Positions 53,224 to 63,702 are shown, counted from the stretch's first letter. The stretch: 64,000 nucleotides of DNA from Flavobacterium sp. (GCF_027533505.1 NZ_JAPZUB010000056.1:77-64076); one strand, 5' to 3'. Notes: generated by a model not told the origin, from the letters alone. Numbers and translations: made by a program.

Positions 53224-53720
53224 TAGCTTTGTTTGAAGAGTTGGATTAAATAATAAAAAATAGTCCCAAAAAGCGCTATCAAAATACCCCCAATGACATA
53301 AGCCGTCCCCGAAAAATCAGGATGCAAAGCAACTTGTACCGTTTGCCATTGAATAGCCGCAAAAATCCCGACCAGAACCACTTTCAAACTGCGCATCATT
53401 TGCAAAGCCCAACCGTAGAGTCGCGGCGCATTATCGGTAGTCACCTTAACCGGATAATTAAACCATTCGGGATGACGCCCTAGGAAGGTAAGCAAAACAT
53501 ACAACGCTGTCCCTACGGCCACTTCTATTAGAAAAAACACTTTCCCGCCATAGCCGTCGGGATTGCCCTGGCCGTCAAAATGGATGGCGATCGTTTCGGG
53601 CAACTTTGGGTACATGAGGAGGGCGTATATCCAAGAACCCAACAAAAGGAAAAGCGCCAATACTTCTAGTAGACGATCGGTGGCGGTGAGTGGAACTAGG
53701 ATTTTGGGAGGGTGTGCCAT
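53223..53720 (-). CDS. DUF1648 membrane protein
   Basis: LPETIAIHF...G.PDGYG and FNYPV plus TM segments. ATG 53720 is coupled to the tcdA stop (TAATG). Confidence 0.8.
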   Translation of the reverse strand: MAHPPKILVPLTATDRLLEVLALFLLLGSWIYALLMYPKLPETIAIHFDGQGNPDGYGGKVFFLIEVAVGTALYVLLTFLGRHPEWFNYPVKVTTDNAPRLYGWALQMMRSLKVVLVGIFAAIQWQTVQVALHPDFSGTAYVIGGILIALFGTIFYYLIQLFKQS

Positions 53721-54436
53721 TATTTTTTCAACAAATAACGTACAACGGTTTCTGCGGCATGGAGTCCAAACAAACAAGGCATCCAAGAATTCGTTCCGTA
53801 AAACGATTTTTTAAAATTGCTTCCGTCGGTATGTTTTACACTATCATAATCCGGACGTTCGCTGGAGTAAACCACTTTGATACCCCCTGAAATTCCTTCC
53901 TTTTTAAGGCGTTTCCGCACGTGTTTGGCCAAGGGACAGTAATCGGTTTTGCTGATATCGGTGACTTTTACCTTAGCTGCCAAATATTTTCCACCTGCAC
54001 CCATATTACTGATTACTTTGACGCCTTTGCGTTTGGCGGCCAATAATAAATTCAATTTGGGAGTTACACTATCGATACAATCTAAGACATAATCAAACTC
54101 AGGCGAAACCAATTCAAAGGCCCGTTCGGGTGATAAAAACTCTTTCAAAGGAGTCAATTCCAATTCGGGGTTGATGTCCCACAAACGCGCGGCCATAAGT
54201 TCAACTTTAGGTAAACCTACTGTAGAATGCAACGCGGGTAATTGCCTGTTAATGTTGGTGATATCTACGACATCGCCATCCACAATAGTCATTTTTCCGA
54301 CGCCTGCACGCGCTAAAAATTCGGCGGCAAACGAACCTACGCCTCCCAAACCTACTACCAATACATTTGCCTGACGTAATTTTTCTAAACCTTCCGTCTT
54401 AAATAATAGTTCTGCACGTTCTTGCCAAACAGCCAT
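53720..54436 (-). CDS. tcdA: tRNA threonylcarbamoyladenosine dehydratase (ThiF family)
   Basis: Motifs GLGGVGS, DGDVVDITNINRQ, DCID and SNMGAGG. Confidence 0.9.
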   Translation of the reverse strand: MAVWQERAELLFKTEGLEKLRQANVLVVGLGGVGSFAAEFLARAGVGKMTIVDGDVVDITNINRQLPALHSTVGLPKVELMAARLWDINPELELTPLKEFLSPERAFELVSPEFDYVLDCIDSVTPKLNLLLAAKRKGVKVISNMGAGGKYLAAKVKVTDISKTDYCPLAKHVRKRLKKEGISGGIKVVYSSERPDYDSVKHTDGSNFKKSFYGTNSWMPCLFGLHAAETVVRYLLKK

Positions 54437-54446
54437 GATTTTAGAA

Positions 54447-54502
54447 TTATGAGTTATGAATTATGAGTTATGAGTTATGAGTTATGAGTTATGAGTTATG
54501 AA
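54447..54502. repeat. Heptamer tandem array (TTATGAR)x8
   Basis: Eight contiguous 7-mers: six TTATGAG and two TTATGAA. Confidence 0.95.
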
Positions 54503-54517: not shown

Positions 54518-54530
54518 AGGATTTGGTGGG

Positions 54531-54607
54531 AGAAGAAAGAAGAAAGAAGAAAGAAGAAAGAAGAAAGAAGAAAGAAGAAAGAGAAAAGAGAAAAGAGAAA
54601 AGAGAAA
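54531..54607. repeat. Heptamer tandem array (AGAAGAA)x7 followed by (AGAGAAA)x4
   Basis: Eleven contiguous purine-only 7-mers between the tatD stop and the tcdA promoter. Confidence 0.95.
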
Positions 54608-55759: not shown

Positions 55760-56110
55760 AGTCGTTGGACGTATGAGTGACTAGTGATTAGTGACTAGTC
55801 GTTAGACGTTAGACGTTAGACGTTAGTTAAGGAGGACATGTTAGCACGCCCATTTCTAATTTATAATTCAACATTTAAAATACCTCCAAAAAGGGGTCTT
55901 TGTTCTTTCTTCTTTGTTCTTTCTTCTCAACTTAAAAGTCGTTAGAATTTAGAGTAATTAGTGATTAGTGACTAGTGATTAGTCGTTAGACGTTAGACAT
56001 TAGACGTTAGTCAAGAAGGACGTGTTAGAAAACCCATTTATAATTTAAAATTCAACATTTAAAATACTTCCAAAGAGGGTCTTTGTTCTTGCTTCTTTGC
56101 TCTTTTTTCT
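55760..56110. repeat. Two tandem roughly 170-bp direct repeats, each a mosaic of four heptamer arrays
   Basis: Copies at 55760-55927 and 55937-56110. Each has the order (TAGTGAY)n, (GTTAGAC)n, spacer, (ATTTAAA-like)x4, spacer, (CTTTSTT)x4. Confidence 0.92.
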
Positions 56111-56176: not shown

Positions 56177-56229
56177 AATAAACGGTTTAGTGGTTCAGCT
56201 TCTCGATGATTTTTTACTTCATTTTTTTG

Positions 56230-56237
56230 TATATTTG
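56230..56237 (+). promoter_or_regulatory. -7 promoter box (TATATTTG) for the integrase
   Basis: Ends 19 nt before ATG 56257. Confidence 0.6.
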
Positions 56238-56256
56238 TCATTCAACTACACGCCAT

Positions 56257-58005
56257 ATGACTTTAATTATTCGAAAAATTGAACACAAAGGAGCGGTACG
56301 CATTGGCATTTTTTTTGAAAGGAATAATGCGATACAGCAACAATTAAAAGGGATTGGAGCTACCTATAGCAAGACGTTTCAATGTTGGTATATTGATTAC
56401 AACAAAGCAGCGTATCAACAGCTAAAAATTTTATTTCCCGATTTACAAATACAGCAACCGGTGGCCGGCGAAACGAGTAGCCGTGACCTTCCACCCATAG
56501 CCCAAAGCGAACTTCAGTTAGGTTTACCTCCTTTGGTAAACAACCCTGAACCTATAACGAACAAGGCTTCGTTAGCCCATAAGTTGCGATTAGAATTATT
56601 ACCACCCTTGGGGAAATATTGGGTTTTTAAAATTCGGTATGTGCAATCGGTTGTGAATCAACTTAAGTTGGTAAAAGGCGTATATTGGCATTCGACGTAC
56701 AAAGTATATATGGCCAATCGGCATCCGAAAGTGAAAGAAGCGGTGGAACGTATTTTGGAAGTTTCCAATTTTTTTCCTGAAAACTATTTGGAAAAAGAGG
56801 TTGTTTTTGAAGGCAAGTCGATTGTTTTGCGTCCACACCTTGAGAATGTGAAATGGATGCAGGTGTATGTTCCTGCACAATTGGTGTTATTGGAAAAAAT
56901 AAAACGCATTTCGATGGTTCGGTACAGTAAACCGAATGCTTGTTTTTTATTGCCTGCAACCCCAGCTGTTGTTAATGCATTAGTGGTACATTTTGAACCG
57001 CATCGTGTTGTGATTCAATCGGAATTGCCTCAGGGATATGTAAACCGACGAAATGTTGTTAATAAAAAGCAACTTGATTTGGCGCGAACAAAATCACATT
57101 TGTTTTCCAAACTTCCTGAGCCGGCACATTATTTTGTTTCCAATTACATGGATACGTTAATGGCGGTGAATTATAGTGTTTCAACCATTCGTACTTATAC
57201 ACAACAATTTTTACAATTTTTACGCGATTTTGAGTACAGAGACCCCAAGGATATCACGTATAAAGAAACGGTTCGTTATTTAGCCTCCTTGATGGAACGC
57301 GGATTGAGTGCAACCTCTGGTCATGCGATGGTGAATGCATTGCTGTTTTATTATAATCAGGTGGAACAAATACCGGGTTATGAATTAAAACTACCTCGGC
57401 CTAAAAAGGAAAAAAAGTTGCCTACTGTTTTGACAAAGGAAGAATGTTTATTGCTTTTTGGGGTGGTTGAAAATCCGAAGCATAAGTTATTGTTATTAAT
57501 TGGTTATGGAGCGGGTTTACGCGTGAGTGAAATTGTGAATTTAGAGTGGCGTGATATTCTGTTTGCGGAACACAAGATTCACATCAGGAATGCGAAAGGA
57601 AAGAAAGATAGAATGGTGATGTTGCCTATGCGTATAGTTCGTTCATTGGAATACTATAAAGAGACGTATCAAACCAAAAAGTACGTATTTGAGGGGCAAT
57701 TTGCAGGTGAGCCCTATTCTGTGCGAAGTGTTCAGGAGGTTATGCGAATGGCATTAAAGAAGACTGGTTTGGAGAAAAAGGCCACGGTACATTCGTTACG
57801 ACATAGTTTTGCTACACATTTGCTGGAGCATGGAACGGATATTCGATATATTCAGCAGATATTGGGTCATTCGAGTATCAAGACCACAACGATTTACACG
57901 CATATTAGTGCAAGTGCTATGAATAAAATCATCAGTCCATTGGATCAGATTACCGAACAAGAATATGAGAAAAAAAGTGAATACGAATTGAAACCTAAGA
58001 AATAG
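56257..58005 (+). CDS. Tyrosine recombinase (integron-integrase-like / Xer-like) with a long N-terminal extension
   Basis: SAM-like segment NYSVSTIRTY and catalytic set GLRVSE, AKGKKDR, HSLRHS, LGH and TTTIYTH. The ORF opens at 56206; 582 aa from ATG 56257. Confidence 0.92.
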   Translation: MTLIIRKIEHKGAVRIGIFFERNNAIQQQLKGIGATYSKTFQCWYIDYNKAAYQQLKILFPDLQIQQPVAGETSSRDLPPIAQSELQLGLPPLVNNPEPITNKASLAHKLRLELLPPLGKYWVFKIRYVQSVVNQLKLVKGVYWHSTYKVYMANRHPKVKEAVERILEVSNFFPENYLEKEVVFEGKSIVLRPHLENVKWMQVYVPAQLVLLEKIKRISMVRYSKPNACFLLPATPAVVNALVVHFEPHRVVIQSELPQGYVNRRNVVNKKQLDLARTKSHLFSKLPEPAHYFVSNYMDTLMAVNYSVSTIRTYTQQFLQFLRDFEYRDPKDITYKETVRYLASLMERGLSATSGHAMVNALLFYYNQVEQIPGYELKLPRPKKEKKLPTVLTKEECLLLFGVVENPKHKLLLLIGYGAGLRVSEIVNLEWRDILFAEHKIHIRNAKGKKDRMVMLPMRIVRSLEYYKETYQTKKYVFEGQFAGEPYSVRSVQEVMRMALKKTGLEKKATVHSLRHSFATHLLEHGTDIRYIQQILGHSSIKTTTIYTHISASAMNKIISPLDQITEQEYEKKSEYELKPKK

Positions 58006-58237: not shown

Positions 58238-58531
58238 ATGAGTAACTTTGGTGACCTAATACGAATAGCAAGAGAAGAGAAAGGTTTGTTCCTGCGACAA
58301 GTTGCAGCTGAACTGGACATTGACCAAGCTATCATTAGCAAATTTGAACGCAACGAACGCAAGCCGACAAAGGAACAGGTTCTGAAATTTGCTAAGTTCT
58401 ATAAGCTCGACAAGGAAACTTTATTAGTTGAGTGGTTAAGCGACAAAGTAGCTTACGACCTGCAAGACGAGAATTTGGCTGACAAAGTTTTGAAAGCTGC
58501 TGAACAGAAAATTAAATACAAGAAAAAGTAA
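58238..58531 (+). CDS. Xre-family HTH regulator (controller-like)
   Basis: REEKGLFLRQVAAELDIDQAIISKFERNERKP HTH_3 pattern; TAATG-coupled to res. Confidence 0.9.
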   Translation: MSNFGDLIRIAREEKGLFLRQVAAELDIDQAIISKFERNERKPTKEQVLKFAKFYKLDKETLLVEWLSDKVAYDLQDENLADKVLKAAEQKIKYKKK

Positions 58532-61422
58532 TGCTTCATTATATCATACAAGAAAAGAAAAACAAATGGTTGCAGTCTGACGACTGCACCATTAGTGATT
58601 TGATAAAGTATATCCGTGACAAAGGACAGTTACGTGATACGCAAATTGAAGCAATTGAGACTTATTTGTTTTTGAAAATACAAGGACAGAATAAACCACT
58701 TTGGCAATTATTTTCAGAAGGCTTTTTCACTAACGGCACAGACTTATCAAAACTTAATATTAATCAAACGGCAAGAGATTTTTTAACCGCCAACAAAGAC
58801 GCTTTTGCATTGTATGACTTTGCAAGAACAAAAAACGGAAACGGTTCTTTACTCCCCGAACTCGAAAAACTAATTGTTGACAAACCAACTGAATTAGATT
58901 ACGACACTATTATAAAAAGCATTTTCTACAATGTAAGCTATGCCGACTACTTAATGAGTTTGCCGATGGGTGCAGGTAAAACATTTCTAATGGCTGCTTT
59001 CATTTATTTGGACTTGTATTTTGCCGACAACGAACCAGAGAATAAAGCATTTGCACATAATTTTTTGGTGCTTATTCCTTCGGGCTTAAAATCTTCTATC
59101 GTTCCGAGTTTAAAGACAATTGAAAATTACGACCCTTCTTGGGTGTTGCCCGAACCATCGGCAAGCAAACTAAAAAAACTATTGAAGTTTGATGTTTTGG
59201 ACGAGCAGAAATCAGCGAAGAAAAGTAACAAGGCAAGAAACCCCAATGCTCAAAAAGTAAATGCTTGCTTACCTAATCCATTCGGACAAGTGTTTGTTGT
59301 AAATGCAGAGAAAGTGATTTTGGAAAGTTTCAAATTCAATGCTCAAACAGAATTGGAACTGGAGGAAGAAGAAAAAGATACAAGCAACGATTTAAAAAGA
59401 TTGTTCGGACAAATTCCGAACTTGACAATCCTTATAGATGAAGTTCACCACGCTGCAACCGATGATATTAAATTACGGCAAGCCGTAAATTATTGGCACA
59501 GCAAAGGGAACATCACAACCGTTTTAGGTTTCTCGGGAACGCCATATTTGCAGGGTGCTGAAACTATCAAAGCAGGTGATTACGCTTTTAAGTTTTCTCA
59601 AATAACCAACACGGTATATTATTATCCATTGGTTACAGCAATTAAGAAATTTCTGAAAACACCAACAGTAAAAATCGGACAAAACCTTGACCGTTTTCAA
59701 ATCATTAAAAAAGGAATTGAGGACTTTGATACACTATACAAGAAAACTGTTTATGAAAATGGTGCTATTGCTAAAATAGCTATCTATTGCAGTAACATTG
59801 AGGTTTTAGAAGAAGAAGTTTATCCGTTCCTGACAAGTGAATTGAAAATAAATCCTGCCGAGATTTTAAAATTTCATGGAGGAAATAAAAAATACACTTT
59901 GCCAAAAGAGAATGAATTAGAATTCCGTTCATTGGATTTGGCTATTTCAAAAAAGCGTTACATTCTTTTAGTTCAAGTGGGAAAAGAAGGTTGGGACTGT
60001 CCAAGTTTAACAGGTGTAATCCTTTCGCAAAAAGGCGACAGCCCACAAAATATGGTGCTGCAAACATCTTGCAGATGTTTACGCCAAGTGGACAAAGGAA
60101 AAGAAGAAACTGCTTTGATTTGGTTGAATAAAGATAATGCCGATACATTGAACAAACAGTTAAAGCAAGAACAAAACAGCAGCATTGACGAACTGAACAG
60201 CACCAAACGAATTGGGAAAGCCGAAATGGTTGAACGCCACAGCCGTATGGAATACTTGCAGTTGCCGAAAGTGGAATTTTATCAAATGAAAGTTACTTAT
60301 CAAAGCATTGATGAGGAAGAAACAGCAAACACAAAAGCCAAGTTAAAAGCTATCATTAAAAAGATGGAAGATTACAAGGCTTCTGCCTTAATCAGCACCA
60401 GTGAAATTTCAAACATTGATACTGGAACTATTGACATTATTAACGAAACAGGAATTGCATTTGCCAATTACAACCAATGGCTTTTTGAAATGAGCCGCCA
60501 AAGTTTTGGGTTGATTTCGGAAACACAATTGCATCAATACGATACAGAATTAAACGAAATATTTGAAACCGTTTCTTTTGAAAAAGACGGAAACCGCTTT
60601 TTCAATGAACTGTATGATTTGCATTTGATACAATCAAAAATTCGTGTTGCGTTTAGCATCAAAAGAGATTTACAAACCGACACAGAAGTAATTCCAAAAC
60701 AAGCGGAATTATTGATTGCCGAACGCTTGACCAATGTAGAGAAAAATCCAAAACTCTATCCGAACGAAGCTGATACAAACAAAATTCTTGAATTAGATAA
60801 AAGCAATGCCGATGTTGAATTTGACTGGGCAGAAGTTGAAAAGGCTTATCTGGTAATGAAGGAGACAATGATAAGTCAAGGAATGGAAAAGTGGGTTCCT
60901 GAATATGAAACTTTCAAATCCGATAAAGATTATTCTCTACCAACAAAATCTAAAAATAATTCCTTTCATTATTTACCCTACAATTTTGGAGCTAGCGGAA
61001 GCAGTGGTTTTGAAATACAAGCACTTCAAGAAACCTTAAGATTAGCTGATTTCAAAACTAAAGAGTTGGAAATATACTACAATGGCGAACGTGGCTTAAC
61101 CGAATTTGTCATTAACTGCTTTGCCAAAGAAGGAAAGTATTGGAAAAACATTGGGAAATACACTACTGACTTTTTAATTGTGAAACGAACCGCTAAAGAT
61201 AAAATTCATAAAGCCCTACTTATTGAAACCAAAGGTGCTTTGTATGCAGAAGACAAGGTTTTTCAGAAAAAGAAAAACTATGTAGAAACAGAGTTTTTAA
61301 AACTCAACCAAGATAAATTCGGCTATCAACGTTTCGACTTCCTGTATTTGGAAGACAGCAAAAACATTGCAGCCAACATCACAGAATTGAACAATAAGTT
61401 AAACCAGTTCTTCAATGATTAA
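58531..61422 (+). CDS. Type III restriction (Res)-like SF2 helicase-nuclease
   Basis: Motifs SLPMGAGKT, DEVHH, FSGTP, VGKEGWDCP and QTSCRCLR; C-terminal PD-(D/E)xK-like TTDFLIV...LIETKG. Confidence 0.82.
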   Translation: MLHYIIQEKKNKWLQSDDCTISDLIKYIRDKGQLRDTQIEAIETYLFLKIQGQNKPLWQLFSEGFFTNGTDLSKLNINQTARDFLTANKDAFALYDFARTKNGNGSLLPELEKLIVDKPTELDYDTIIKSIFYNVSYADYLMSLPMGAGKTFLMAAFIYLDLYFADNEPENKAFAHNFLVLIPSGLKSSIVPSLKTIENYDPSWVLPEPSASKLKKLLKFDVLDEQKSAKKSNKARNPNAQKVNACLPNPFGQVFVVNAEKVILESFKFNAQTELELEEEEKDTSNDLKRLFGQIPNLTILIDEVHHAATDDIKLRQAVNYWHSKGNITTVLGFSGTPYLQGAETIKAGDYAFKFSQITNTVYYYPLVTAIKKFLKTPTVKIGQNLDRFQIIKKGIEDFDTLYKKTVYENGAIAKIAIYCSNIEVLEEEVYPFLTSELKINPAEILKFHGGNKKYTLPKENELEFRSLDLAISKKRYILLVQVGKEGWDCPSLTGVILSQKGDSPQNMVLQTSCRCLRQVDKGKEETALIWLNKDNADTLNKQLKQEQNSSIDELNSTKRIGKAEMVERHSRMEYLQLPKVEFYQMKVTYQSIDEEETANTKAKLKAIIKKMEDYKASALISTSEISNIDTGTIDIINETGIAFANYNQWLFEMSRQSFGLISETQLHQYDTELNEIFETVSFEKDGNRFFNELYDLHLIQSKIRVAFSIKRDLQTDTEVIPKQAELLIAERLTNVEKNPKLYPNEADTNKILELDKSNADVEFDWAEVEKAYLVMKETMISQGMEKWVPEYETFKSDKDYSLPTKSKNNSFHYLPYNFGASGSSGFEIQALQETLRLADFKTKELEIYYNGERGLTEFVINCFAKEGKYWKNIGKYTTDFLIVKRTAKDKIHKALLIETKGALYAEDKVFQKKKNYVETEFLKLNQDKFGYQRFDFLYLEDSKNIAANITELNNKLNQFFND

Positions 61423-61447
61423 TGGTTAATTGTAAATTGTTAATGAA
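61419..61447. repeat. Left heptamer array (TTAATTG-like x4) of the four-helix element
   Basis: TTAATGG TTAATTG TAAATTG TTAATGA fills the gap from the res stop to ATG 61448. Confidence 0.8.
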
Positions 61448-61807
61448 ATGACAGAGAATATTATAAAAAATAAAAGTTTTGCATTTGCAATTAGAGTTGT
61501 AAAACTATATCAGTTTTTATGTGAAACAAAAAAGGAGTTTGTTCTTTCAAAGCAATTGTTGAGAAGCGGAACTGCTGTTGGTGCATTAGTTCGAGAAGCT
61601 GAACACGCTGAAAGCAAAGCAGATTTTAAACACAAAATGTCAATTGCTCAAAAAGAAATAAATGAAAGTATCTATTGGCTCGAATTGCTAAAAGAAACGG
61701 ACTATTTAACCAATGAACAATTTCAAAGCATCAATGCAGATGCAGTAGAAATAATCAAACTACTTACATCAATAATCAAATCGACCAAAGCAAACATTAA
61801 CAACTAA
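61448..61807 (+). CDS. Four helix bundle protein (23S rRNA-IVS-protein / bAvd-like family)
   Basis: 119 aa with KSFAFAIRVVKLY, LSKQLLRSGTAVGALVREA, AESKADFKHK.SIA.KE..ES.YWLELL. Confidence 0.92.
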   Translation: MTENIIKNKSFAFAIRVVKLYQFLCETKKEFVLSKQLLRSGTAVGALVREAEHAESKADFKHKMSIAQKEINESIYWLELLKETDYLTNEQFQSINADAVEIIKLLTSIIKSTKANINN

Positions 61808-61828
61808 CAATTGATAATTAACAATTAG
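61794..61828. repeat. Right heptamer array (CAATTAA-like x5), inverted relative to the left array
   Basis: ACATTAA CAACTAA CAATTGA TAATTAA CAATTAG, ending 5 nt before the mod ATG. Confidence 0.8.
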
Positions 61829-61833
61829 AAAAA

Positions 61834-63702
61834 ATGCCAATAAAATACATTCCATATTACCCTAACACGGTTGAAGGACAAGCAGTTTTGAATAATATAA
61901 CACGCAATCAAAGAGTATTGCGATACCGTGAAAATGATAAGGTTTTTGACCGCATAAAAAGAGGTATGCCCTTTTATGAAGTAGAACCTATTGAAACAGT
62001 AGGAGCACCTTCTAAAAATTTGGTTATACGTGGCGAATGTATATCGGCTTGTGCATATTTGAAGGAACAAGGAATTAAGGTTGATTTGGTTTGCATTGAC
62101 CCACCATTTGCAAGTGGTATTGATTATTCAAAAAAAGTTTTTATCCGTAGAAATCCAAATATTGCCAAAAAAATTGAAGAGGCTGAACAACAAATGGATA
62201 TTGAGGAATTAAGAGCATTTGAAGAAAAAATGTATGGAGACATTTGGTCAAAAGAAGATTATCTCAATTGGATGTATGAAAATCTTTTAGCTATTAAATC
62301 AGTTATGGATGAAAAGGCCAGTATTTATGTTCACCTAGATTGGCATATTGGCCATTATGTAAAAATACTTATGGATGAAGTCTTTGGAGAGGACTTGTTT
62401 AGAAATGAGATTATATGGTATTATGCTGATTATATACAAGGTAATGCCACCACAGGTTTTGCTAAAAAGCACGATGTGATATATTTCTATACAAAATCGG
62501 ACAATTATACCTTTCAAAGGGTAACCGAAAAACTTGACAAGCCAGTTGAAAGAAATAAAGTAGTATGGGACAAAGAAACCCAGACACTAAAAGTTGCGAG
62601 AGATGAAAATGGTAAAATAATCTATGAAACATTTACAGAAAAATTCCTTGATAGTGTTTGGGCAATTGGTCAAACTTCAGTGACAAGAAAAACTAGTAGT
62701 GAAAATGTCGGTTATTCAACACAAAAGCCCAAAGCACTGTTAGAAAGGTTCATTAAGGCAAGTAGTAATGAAGGAATGATAATCGCTGATTTCTTTGGCG
62801 GTAGTGGAGTAACAGCAAAAGTAGCAAACGACTTAGGCAGAAAATTTATTCATTGTGATATTGGAATAAACAGTATTCAGACAGTTAGAGATAGATTAGT
62901 TGAAGCCAAAGCCAACTTTCAAATATTGGAAATAAAAGACGGTGTTAGCTTATTCCGCAACCCACAGCAAACAATGGATAAGTTGGCAACACTTATTCCA
63001 GGATTACAAAAAGGAGTAAAAGGAATTAGCAATTTTTGGTTTGGTGCAATCACAAAAAGTAAAGAAGGCATTGTGCCGGTTTACGTTCCCAATTTGCTTA
63101 ATACACAAGAAAAGGTTTTGGACATTCCCACCATAAACACCATAATCAATCAGGAACTATCAAACTTAGAAGTCAATGCCAAAAAAGTAATTGTGTATTA
63201 CATAGACATTGACGACCAAAAGGCATTGGAGAAATTTATAAAAGACAACAACGCCACAGAAATAGAGGTTGAATTAAAAGACCTTAAAAATCTATTGCAC
63301 GATGTAGTAATTGAGGACATTATAGATTTTAAAACTACTAAAACAAAAGACGGTTACGAAACAGAAATAAACAAATTCATTAGCGACCGTCTAATTCAGA
63401 AAATCGGTGAATTTAACCAAAAAGGAAATTTACAATCTGTTGCCAAAGGCAAGAAATTCAATCCCATCAACATCAGTGAAGAAGGATTAGAACTCATTGA
63501 GCTTATTGCCCTTGACTGCGAAAACACAGAAGGACAATGGCACAGCACCACAGAAATTAAAATTGACAAACTCGGTTATGTAATTACCAACGGAGTAAAA
63601 TCAAAAAACTTTTGGAACGGCAAAATTACCAGCGACAAAAATCCATTGAGAATAAAAGTGAGAAACATAAGCGGAGACGAAACAATAAAAACAGTAGAAT
63701 AA
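61834..63702 (+). CDS. Type III Mod-like N6A/N4C DNA methyltransferase
   Basis: Catalytic DPPF, YVHLDWHIGHY, YSTQKP..LLERFI and SAM-binding DFFGGSGVT. Confidence 0.9.
   Translation: MPIKYIPYYPNTVEGQAVLNNITRNQRVLRYRENDKVFDRIKRGMPFYEVEPIETVGAPSKNLVIRGECISACAYLKEQGIKVDLVCIDPPFASGIDYSKKVFIRRNPNIAKKIEEAEQQMDIEELRAFEEKMYGDIWSKEDYLNWMYENLLAIKSVMDEKASIYVHLDWHIGHYVKILMDEVFGEDLFRNEIIWYYADYIQGNATTGFAKKHDVIYFYTKSDNYTFQRVTEKLDKPVERNKVVWDKETQTLKVARDENGKIIYETFTEKFLDSVWAIGQTSVTRKTSSENVGYSTQKPKALLERFIKASSNEGMIIADFFGGSGVTAKVANDLGRKFIHCDIGINSIQTVRDRLVEAKANFQILEIKDGVSLFRNPQQTMDKLATLIPGLQKGVKGISNFWFGAITKSKEGIVPVYVPNLLNTQEKVLDIPTINTIINQELSNLEVNAKKVIVYYIDIDDQKALEKFIKDNNATEIEVELKDLKNLLHDVVIEDIIDFKTTKTKDGYETEINKFISDRLIQKIGEFNQKGNLQSVAKGKKFNPINISEEGLELIELIALDCENTEGQWHSTTEIKIDKLGYVITNGVKSKNFWNGKITSDKNPLRIKVRNISGDETIKTVE

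Follow-up and report, generated by a model that had tools for sequence, protein, structure and literature searches.

A four-helix-bundle gene between inverted heptamer arrays, inserted in the res-mod spacer of a Flavobacterium restriction-modification operon

The insert at the res/mod junction

The window analysed here, a stretch of 64,000 nt from Flavobacterium sp. (NZ_JAPZUB010000056.1:77-64076), contains a restriction-modification (R-M) operon with a small additional gene between its two main genes. The res gene (58531-61422) encodes a protein of 963 aa with a ResIII helicase domain (PF04851 at 2.1e-07, a weak match), and the mod gene (61834-63702) encodes a protein of 622 aa with an N6_N4_Mtase domain (PF01555 at 1.4e-41; PADLOC MTase_III at 7.5e-44). 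The open reading frame (ORF) between them (61448-61807) encodes 119 aa and belongs to the Avd-like four-helix-bundle (4HB) proteins of family PF05635 23S_rRNA_IVP / TIGR02436. All three genes lie on the plus strand, and the 4HB ORF is separated from res by 25 nt and from mod by 26 nt. The best PADLOC match of Mod was a Type III methyltransferase. An N6_N4_Mtase-type Mod and a Res with a ResIII domain, encoded in one operon, are what identifies a Type III R-M system, although the order, with res before mod, is atypical. A nuclease domain of Res was not recognised in the domain searches.

Tandem Repeats Finder detected an array of period 7 on either side of the 4HB ORF, each with 4.6 copies: AATGGTT at 61414-61445 upstream and ATTAACA at 61796-61827 downstream. 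The left arm (61414-61447, plus strand) consists of about 4.6 heptamers (TAATGGT TAATTGT AAATTGT TAATGAA). It is G-rich, lacks C and includes the res stop codon TAA (61420-61422). The right arm (61795-61828, plus strand) consists of about 4.6-5 heptamers (ACATTAA CAACTAA CAATTGA TAATTAA CAATTAG), is C-rich and G-poor, and covers the stop codon of the 4HB ORF and the 3-4 codons before it; it is followed by an A-rich GAAAAA before the mod ATG. A repeat search of the window found the two arms reverse-complementary over 32 nt at 78% or over 23 nt at 87%, in agreement with the 22 of 28 positions claimed in the original prediction, which had been made from the sequence of the window. Runs of at least three units of the TTAATTG/CAATTAA type occurred twice in the 64 kb, and these two were exactly the arrays flanking the 4HB gene. 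In 100 dinucleotide shuffles of the window, such runs numbered 0.02 on average, and no shuffle had two. The repeat finders and the shuffling confirmed that inverted heptamer arrays bracket the 4HB gene between res and mod, as had been predicted.

Empty alleles of the junction exist in abundance. About 55 of the 80 res-mod homologues that were collected by a metagenome scan with Mod read ...TTTTTTAACGAT TAA GAT ATGCCA... (AACGAT before the TAA), so that the junction consists of the res stop, 3 nt and the mod start. The window reads ...TTCTTCAATGAT TAA, then TGGTTAATTG ... CAATTAGAAAAA, then ATGCCA... (AATGAT before the TAA). Since the empty alleles run from res over TAA-GAT-ATG into mod, 61423-61833 (plus strand) is an insert. 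It comprises 411 nt with the left arm, the 4HB ORF and the right arm, and stands in place of a 3-nt spacer that is usually GAT. The empty alleles carry no arrays, and the arrays therefore arrived together with the gene.

The same cassette was found at the same junction in three further metagenome loci (L083, L102, L148; loci of our homologue sets are given by L numbers) and in the genome loci L001, L002 and L042, of which L002 is from Flavobacterium branchiophilum ATCC 35035. In L003 it lies directly upstream of a mod-like start, and the flanking genes are far more divergent. In a tree of the res/mod flanks, occupied and empty alleles were intermingled, a distribution that takes at least 4-5 gains or losses to explain. 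The flanks of the occupied alleles L102/L042 were 95.6% identical to those of the empty allele L103. Likewise, the last 300 nt of res in the window were 95.7% identical to the empty allele L092, compared to 73-82% for other occupied alleles. The cassettes at the res-mod junction were 85-92% identical to each other, and the proportion of synonymous differences (pS) was 0.31-0.60 for cassettes versus 0.52-0.77 for flanks. The last res codons were (TTC) TTC AAT GAT in all occupied alleles and TTT TTT AAC GAT in most empty ones. These patterns suggest that homologous recombination with short co-conversion tracts likely carried the cassette from one diverged res-mod allele to another.

The 3-nt spacer between res and mod is an insertion hot spot. 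Other inserts at this junction were RhuM, HicA/HicB, a YafQ/RelE pair, PtuA/PtuB-like genes (AAA_15 + HNH) and an AAA_15/OLD-like ATPase (L087, L104, L124, L129-L136, L139, L140, L149-L151, L159). Two further alleles (L118 2047-2501 and L156 2038-2501) contain a gene for a 125-aa GxxExxY protein (PF13366, PD-(D/E)XK) at the junction, and this gene is bracketed by inverted tandem-repeat arms of its own, e.g. CTCGCAGAGACGCTAAGACGCAAAG ... GCTTAGCGTCTTTGCGCCTTAGCGAG. A second, unrelated family of small genes thus uses the same cassette build. In the Cloacibacterium allele (L001 5676-5707), an array-like stretch, CATTAACCATTATCAATTAACCATTAACCATT, was seen in frame within the mod coding sequence.

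The protein and the cassette build among relatives

The 4HB protein of the window matched PF05635 over residues 3-107 with 94.5 bits (cut-off 33.8; E = 5.6e-27) and TIGR02436 over residues 6-114 with 104.1 bits (cut-off 24; E = 4.4e-30). A phmmer search gave PDB 2RLD as a close solved homologue (E = 2.1e-41, residues 1-116), from which a four-helix-bundle fold of about 120 aa can be inferred. Searches of Pfam, NCBIfam, PADLOC and PHROGs did not find a nuclease or endonuclease family in the protein, and PADLOC and PHROGs gave no match for it at all. A HEPN-like Rx4-6H motif was looked for and is absent; the protein has R-x3-H only. It has thousands of close relatives, and dN/dS between the window copy and 30 homologues was 0.03-0.09. 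The ORF is under strong purifying selection and the protein is functional. The original prediction had described a minimal operon-invading element that is neutral at the RNA level. The insertion is borne out by the empty alleles; given the selection on the ORF, the element is more than a minimal neutral passenger.

The build of gene and arms was followed in a genome set of 80 loci (64-97% identity; Bacteroidota and metagenome-assembled genomes (MAGs) assigned to several other phyla) and in a distant set of 8 plasmid homologues with 35-56% identity from cyanobacteria, a spirochaete, Chloroflexota and Bacillota. Most genome copies have (TTAATGG/TTAATTG)n just upstream of the gene and (CCATTAA/CAATTAA)n from the last codons on. 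In most scorable loci the upstream consensus heptamer was the reverse complement of the downstream one with at most one mismatch, whereas the direct form was at least three mismatches off. G exceeded C upstream in 59 of 77 loci, C exceeded G downstream in 60 of 77, and both held for 50 of 77. Where the unit differs, it differs in both arms: GGTTAGT upstream goes with ACTAACC downstream in L040, L049, L050, L061 and L063, and AAGGGTT with CCCTTAA in L041. All 8 distant homologues (plasmids of Euhalothece, Treponema, Nostoc, Anabaena, Planktothrix, Pseudanabaena, Chlorohelix and Monoglobus) also have inverted tandem-repeat arms, with units quite different from those of the window, such as CCAGTGA/TCACTGG, GGTCGGA/TCCGACC, AATCGTA/TACGATT and GATTTTA/TAAAATC. 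The proximal left-arm sequence TTAATTGTAAATGGTTAATGAA-ATG is kept among cassettes in unrelated contexts. The build of a gene with inverted arrays is conserved across phyla; the unit changes and the arms stay complementary. Inverted heptamer flanks had been expected in homologues, and their recurrence in both sets, together with the empty sites, supports the core of the original prediction, an operon-invading element with inverted heptamer arms that act in cis.

Extra 4HB paralogues within the loci are likewise flanked by arrays. Some operons have two or three cassettes in successive spacers (L040 4001-4366, 5391-5759 and 7006-7398; L027 4001-4360 and 5998-6366), and the only recent duplicates were such within-locus pairs in neighbouring spacers, with nucleotide identities of 97% in L040 and 94.5% in L027 that point to recent local duplication. 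Both boundaries of homology in these pairs fall within the arrays, one in the upstream and the other in the downstream array, and the array lengths differ greatly. Heptamer copy number varies among alleles and among strains. At position 3970 of L065, public RNA and DNA runs contained strains with one extra left-arm unit (+TTATTAA or +TTACTAA), a copy-number polymorphism that is due to slippage.

The 4HB gene was co-directional with both neighbours in 58 of 69 loci and antisense to both in one. The gaps to the neighbours are typically 25-40 nt and are made of the arrays. Neighbour families were very diverse, with an enrichment for R-M and CRISPR (clustered regularly interspaced short palindromic repeats) genes: HsdR (8-10 loci), HsdM, HsdS, MmeI, Mod, RhuM, cas1/cas2, csx2 and a HEPN protein. 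Housekeeping neighbours were chorismate synthase, thymidylate synthase, PurH, aconitase, CobU and AcrB. A statistical association of PF05635 with CRISPR and defence loci has been described (PMC10910872, PMC10053308). The context fits a promoter-less cassette that needs read-through from an operon and lands in stop/start spacers or survives only there. An Rfam search did not find rRNA in the window or in 20 related loci.

Expression, known elements and rival explanations

A mini-ORF of 9 codons (61422-61451, plus strand; ATG GTT AAT TGT AAA TTG TTA ATG AAA TGA) connects res and the 4HB gene. It shares nucleotides with both neighbours, at its start with the res stop (TAATG) and at its stop with the 4HB start (ATGA); L002, L042, L083 and L102 show the same arrangement. 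From this arrangement the mini-ORF may be a relay for translational coupling. Stops in all three frames were present in 77-82% of the arms versus 36-46% of composition-matched shuffles, because the 7-nt unit contains TAA or TAG. Together with the A-rich run before the mod ATG, the relay would preserve the coupling that is given by the empty TAAGATATG junction.

The original prediction held that pairing of the arms could close off the gene in the transcript. Folding of 61405-61850 is in line with this as far as prediction goes: the minimum free energy (MFE) and the centroid structure both pair the arms and close the ORF, with 29 arm-arm bp in the MFE structure. At least 10 arm-arm bp were present in the MFE structures of 62 of 79 cassettes (median 25), compared to 33 of 158 length-matched random segments (median 3; p = 3e-20). 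Arms from the same locus paired better than arms from different loci (p = 1e-4), and the duplex energy was also significant across the family when compared to shuffled arms.

Public runs with the window sequence were metagenomes and metatranscriptomes only. One metatranscriptome contig (61387-61537) runs from res through the left arm into the beginning of the 4HB gene. Another run carries the empty allele. A further RNA contig spans a whole Flavobacterium cassette (L065 3942-4472). These few contigs indicate read-through transcription across the left arm and across the whole Flavobacterium cassette.

Mechanistic knowledge of PF05635 so far comes from a few intervening sequences (IVSs) of 23S rRNA. 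An ORF-bearing 23S rRNA IVS similar to that of Coxiella is reported for Leptospira, and bacterial IVSs are excised without re-ligation. For this reason a spliced res-mod mRNA, as suggested in the original prediction, is not expected, and rejoined transcripts are unlikely. The 23S rRNA IVS of Coxiella burnetii comprises 428 nt with an S23p ORF, which is preceded by 2-3 tandem GACAGAT heptamers, the number varying between strains (PMC4990558). Its 28-bp terminal stem is cut mid-stem by RNase III and the rRNA stays fragmented; the ORF is decaying and probably not translated (PMC4990558). The insert described here resembles this element in size (411 versus 428 nt), in its single PF05635/S23p ORF, in variable tandem heptamers directly 5' of the ORF, in a closing stem of about 28 bp between complementary ends (here predicted), in a sporadic distribution suggestive of horizontal gene transfer (HGT), and in having no mobility gene of its own. 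The link to 23S rRNA IVS proteins in the original prediction was therefore right and can be extended, as the Coxiella IVS has the same parts including the tandem heptamers and the RNase III-cut stem. Differences are the site (a 3-nt spacer between protein-coding genes instead of 23S rRNA helix 9, 25 or 45), the heptamer (TTAATKG instead of GACAGAT), and the ORF, which here is strongly conserved by purifying selection and positioned for translational coupling. Cleavage by RNase III was demonstrated for the Coxiella IVS, whereas we infer it for the insert in the window.

The 4HB family is homologous to Avd (PMC10053308), the accessory variability determinant of diversity-generating retroelements (bAvd, PDB 4DWL). 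Both are small basic four-helix bundles of the same fold superfamily, and the entries of the homologues 2RLD and 2GSC contain five chains each. Unlike Avd, the 4HB gene has no adjacent reverse transcriptase (RT) gene or gene with a variable repeat; its neighbours within about 5 kb are an integrase gene, a helix-turn-helix (HTH) gene, res and mod. Among the best 25 of 93 families in the rest of the window there was no RT; a template/variable repeat pair was not searched for. Inverted heptamer arrays, in turn, are not known to flank Avd genes.

Intergenic direct heptamer repeats of the TAACTGA type are known from Beggiatoaceae, cyanobacteria and some Bacteroidota, and a role in binding a regulator was proposed for them (MacGregor 2015, PMC4679880). 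They share with the arms the tandem TAA-containing 7-mers a few nt upstream of starts, often over the preceding stop, the stops in all frames and a patchy, HGT-like distribution (PMC4679880), and the Euhalothece 4HB gene is flanked by TAACTGG/TCACTGG arrays. However, the MacGregor repeats are direct arrays upstream of many kinds of genes, with no paired inverted array and no link to 4HB genes. As with homing elements (group I intron or intein with a homing endonuclease), one exact site is either occupied or empty, occupied alleles are scattered in the host-gene tree, and flanking synonymous markers common to them resemble co-conversion. In contrast to homing elements, the site is intergenic, no endonuclease domain was recognised in the 119-aa protein, and there is no self-splicing RNA or intein. 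The GxxExxY (TIGR04256/PF13366) cassettes of L118 and L156 match the 4HB cassette in gene size (about 125 aa), co-directional orientation, inverted tandem-repeat arms and junction, but the fold is unrelated (nuclease-like) and the repeat unit is about 8 nt and richer in GC. Terminal inverted repeats are shared with insertion sequences and miniature inverted-repeat transposable elements (MITEs); no transposase lies inside the cassette. An integron attC cassette was rejected: by inspection, the heptamers TTAATKG/CMATTAA miss the RYYYAAC...GTTRRRY cores, arrays are present on both sides of the ORF, and the recombinase at 56206-58005 was not classified as IntI. A telomere-like nature of the arrays was ruled out by the wrong polarity of the G-rich strand.

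As the best explanation, to which we assign a probability of about 0.6, 61423-61833 would be a promoter-less 4HB cassette of the kind of the Coxiella-type 23S rRNA IVS, situated in a Type III-like R-M operon whose res and mod genes are translationally coupled, in the 3-nt spacer that separates them. The cassette would be transcribed by read-through from the operon promoter. Its period-7 arrays would provide the stops in all frames, the TAATG and ATGA overlaps would relay ribosomes from res into the 4HB gene, and the A-rich tail would let mod initiate, and the insert would thereby be tolerated. The arms would pair in the transcript into a stem that closes off the gene and, as shown for the Coxiella IVS, is likely a substrate of RNase III. 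Cleavage would free the 4HB RNA and part the res from the mod message without re-ligation. By the same analogy, looping out or excision at the RNA level is plausible. Within the res-mod family, the cassette would spread by the recombination described above, and moves to new sites would be rare. The probable ligand of the 4HB protein is nucleic acid or a partner enzyme, as for Avd.

Several observations weigh against this explanation. No transposase was found in or next to the cassettes, nor a target duplication or a mobility mechanism. A target-site duplication was visible neither at the res/mod junction nor between the paralogue pairs; because TTAA recurs in every heptamer unit and could mask it, a TTAA duplication is possible despite this. 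Synonymous sites were near saturation between cassettes in different contexts, so the cassette is old and moves to new sites rarely and not recently. The AAT marker of the occupied alleles was also present in a few empty ones (L117, L142, L145, L147), for which reason a target preference for the heptamer-unit-like AATGATTAA could be an alternative to co-conversion. In a minority of loci the two arms are direct repeats instead of inverted ones (L017, L048, L069, L079). Moreover, heptamer arrays occur without any 4HB gene, as solo arrays, as arms-only hairpins and as other heptamer repeats in the window, and are thus not exclusive to the cassette. The arm duplex of the window had an energy of -21.0 kcal/mol, compared to -19.1 +/- 6.7 for random genomic pairs of 60x80 nt and -19.7 for a direct-repeat control. 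This value is no better than chance because TTAATT is nearly palindromic and the arms are AT-rich; what makes the arms significant is that they form a conserved pattern of repeats, and not their duplex energy. The whole-region fold reached a z-score of -1.86 only. Mismatches between the arms showed no excess of G-U (G-U 46, A-C 72, other 166, in the best registers of 73 loci; these loci are not independent, which makes this weak evidence either way). As RNA-level selection would predict such an excess, the mismatches lend no support to selection on the arms at the RNA level, and inverted ends acting at the DNA level would account for the complementarity just as well. The RNA data are assembled contigs whose ends fall at repeats for assembly reasons, and they are uninformative on processing.

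The missing G-U excess, with a mismatch spectrum that is symmetric or biased to A-C, leads to an alternative that we regard as unlikely, if worth keeping in view. The arms would act as DNA, as terminal inverted repeats or as a cruciform or single-stranded DNA hairpin of reiterated binding or cleavage sites that a trans-acting transposase, recombinase or the 4HB protein with a partner would recognise in order to mobilise the cassette, and RNA pairing would be incidental. The presence of the cassette in dozens of unrelated sites, the end of homology inside the arrays of recent paralogues in adjacent spacers, the MITE-like arms-only derivative without an ORF (L014 6726-6824) and the analogous inverted arms of the unrelated nuclease-fold family GxxExxY at the same junction agree with this. 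However, it has to do without a transposase in or beside the cassettes and without a discernible target-site duplication, the divergence between contexts is old, and a period of 7 bp is short for reiterated protein sites on double-stranded DNA. In addition, the unit differs so widely between lineages that specificity would have to co-evolve, and the equivalent stem of the Coxiella IVS is demonstrably an RNA substrate (PMC4990558). The strong purifying selection on the ORF could instead mean that the 4HB gene is a host-beneficial accessory of defence operons, be it a regulator or guard of R-M or CRISPR or an Avd-like partner, with the arrays serving as expression signals (all-frame stops, coupled restarts, an unstructured AU-rich leader for the ribosomes of Bacteroidota) and not as a stem or as ends for mobility. 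The enrichment beside HsdR/HsdM/HsdS, MmeI, Mod, cas1/cas2 and HEPN genes, which agrees with the published association of PF05635 (PMC10910872, PMC10053308), the nearly invariable sense orientation, the enrichment of all-frame stops in the arms and the TAATG/ATGA relay mini-ORF point in the same direction. We consider this rather improbable, since most res-mod homologues do without the 4HB gene, the same close family is found in housekeeping operons (chorismate synthase, thymidylate synthase, purH, aconitase, cobU, acrB), no PADLOC model matches the protein, and expression signals leave the reverse-complementary downstream array and the co-variation of the arms unexplained.

It is quite doubtful that 4HB cassettes form an autonomous class of transposase-less mobile elements in many phyla, in which an Avd-like protein would work together with its own arms (as an RNase III-released hairpin RNA or a single-stranded DNA hairpin) and the cassette would be copied by host polymerase, RT or repair into operon stop/start junctions and rRNA hairpin loops. 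If this were true, a single mechanism would have produced the arms-only hairpins, the IVSs of 23S rRNA and the intergenic heptamer arrays known from cyanobacteria, Beggiatoaceae and Bacteroidota. Finally, the arrays might be ordinary heptamer microsatellites of AT-rich intergenic DNA, made by slippage and without function in their inverted arrangement. Heptamer arrays are indeed common in some Bacteroidota, cyanobacteria and Beggiatoaceae (PMC4679880), their copy number is polymorphic, and unrelated ones occur elsewhere in the window. This explanation is already disfavoured and very improbable: the two arrays of this motif in 64 kb both abut the ORF, the inverted arrangement is present in 50 of 77 homologues and in 8 of 8 distant ones with different units, and the empty alleles lack arrays, so that the arrays came with the gene.

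To our knowledge, few unexplained small genes are as common in Bacteroidota and cyanobacteria as those for PF05635 proteins, and we know of no function established for them. Published work covers the protein family and its occurrence in rRNA IVSs, as well as the homology to Avd and a statistical association with CRISPR and defence loci (PMC4990558, PMC10053308, PMC10910872). In the literature searched, the coverage of which was incomplete, we did not find the dimeric heptamer strings. The same literature, which did not include the curated family descriptions, did not link PF05635 or "four helix bundle protein" to flanking arrays, save for the paper on the Coxiella IVS. Within that coverage, the general bracketing by inverted co-varying arms, the exact placement at operon stop/start sites, the exact series of empty and occupied alleles and the equivalence with the rRNA IVS were undescribed. 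Under the IVS-type cassette explanation, rRNA IVSs and operon-embedded 4HB genes would be one kind of cassette with a conserved, co-varying build and exact empty sites. This makes testable what the ORFs of IVSs are for, why heptamer arrays fill certain genomes and how genes enter operons without breaking them. By analogy with the Coxiella IVS, such cassettes would split or re-wire polycistronic defence mRNAs, which is relevant to annotating or expressing those operons.

Operon surroundings and arrays without a 4HB gene

Upstream of res lies an HTH_3 gene (Xre/C-protein-like; 58238-58531, plus strand), which probably encodes the controller of the R-M operon and whose stop codon overlaps that of the res start. 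Further upstream, a gene encodes a tyrosine recombinase of 599 aa (56206-58005, plus strand) with a Phage_integrase domain and a SAM-like N-terminal domain. The statement of the original prediction that the window contains no transposase or RT needs this recombinase as a qualifier. An integrative island at the end of the window probably carries the R-M operon, and the recombinase probably marks the border of this island; the recombinase itself most likely belongs to the island and not to the cassette. PorP/SprF, polyphosphate kinase and RNase P RNA are among the features of the remaining window, which resembles an ordinary Bacteroidota chromosome. A scan for promoters and terminators gave nothing above chance; it was based on sigma-70 and is ill suited to Bacteroidota.

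The window contains further heptamer arrays at 54447-54501, 55770-55826 and 55953-56010, none of which lies beside a 4HB gene. The first, (TTATGAG)x8, abuts the start of a minus-strand ThiF-family gene (53720-54436), and an (AGAAAGA/GAGAAAA)n run follows beyond it at 54530-54600. The other two are (TAGTGAT/TAGACGT)n arrays within a block of about 190 nt, seemingly duplicated as judged by eye, just upstream of the integrase gene. Among the related loci, L014 6726-6824 is an arms-only hairpin, with a left array, a short inner hairpin and a right array, between two co-directional genes, and in L029 5870-6031 a distance of 75 nt separates inverted (GGTATGA)n/(CCTCATA)n arrays. Solo arrays without a gene were seen in L039 2864-2920 and in L143 1316-1353, the latter exactly at the res/mod junction. 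Gene-less arrays and arms-only hairpins may be relics or miniature derivatives of cassettes.

Flavo-1 RNA motifs (RF01705) are located directly 3' of the cassette's 3' arm in two Flavobacterium loci (L073 4382-4462 and L077 3636-3719), and in a Weeksellaceae MAG such a motif (L010 3736-3885) shares the locus with a cassette. Genomes with heptamer arrays tend to carry XisH/XisI (MacGregor 2015, PMC4679880). On plasmid pNPUN01 of Nostoc punctiforme (L163 1483-2737), an array-flanked 4HB gene was found directly upstream of xisH-xisI, near TnsA/Mu-type transposase genes.

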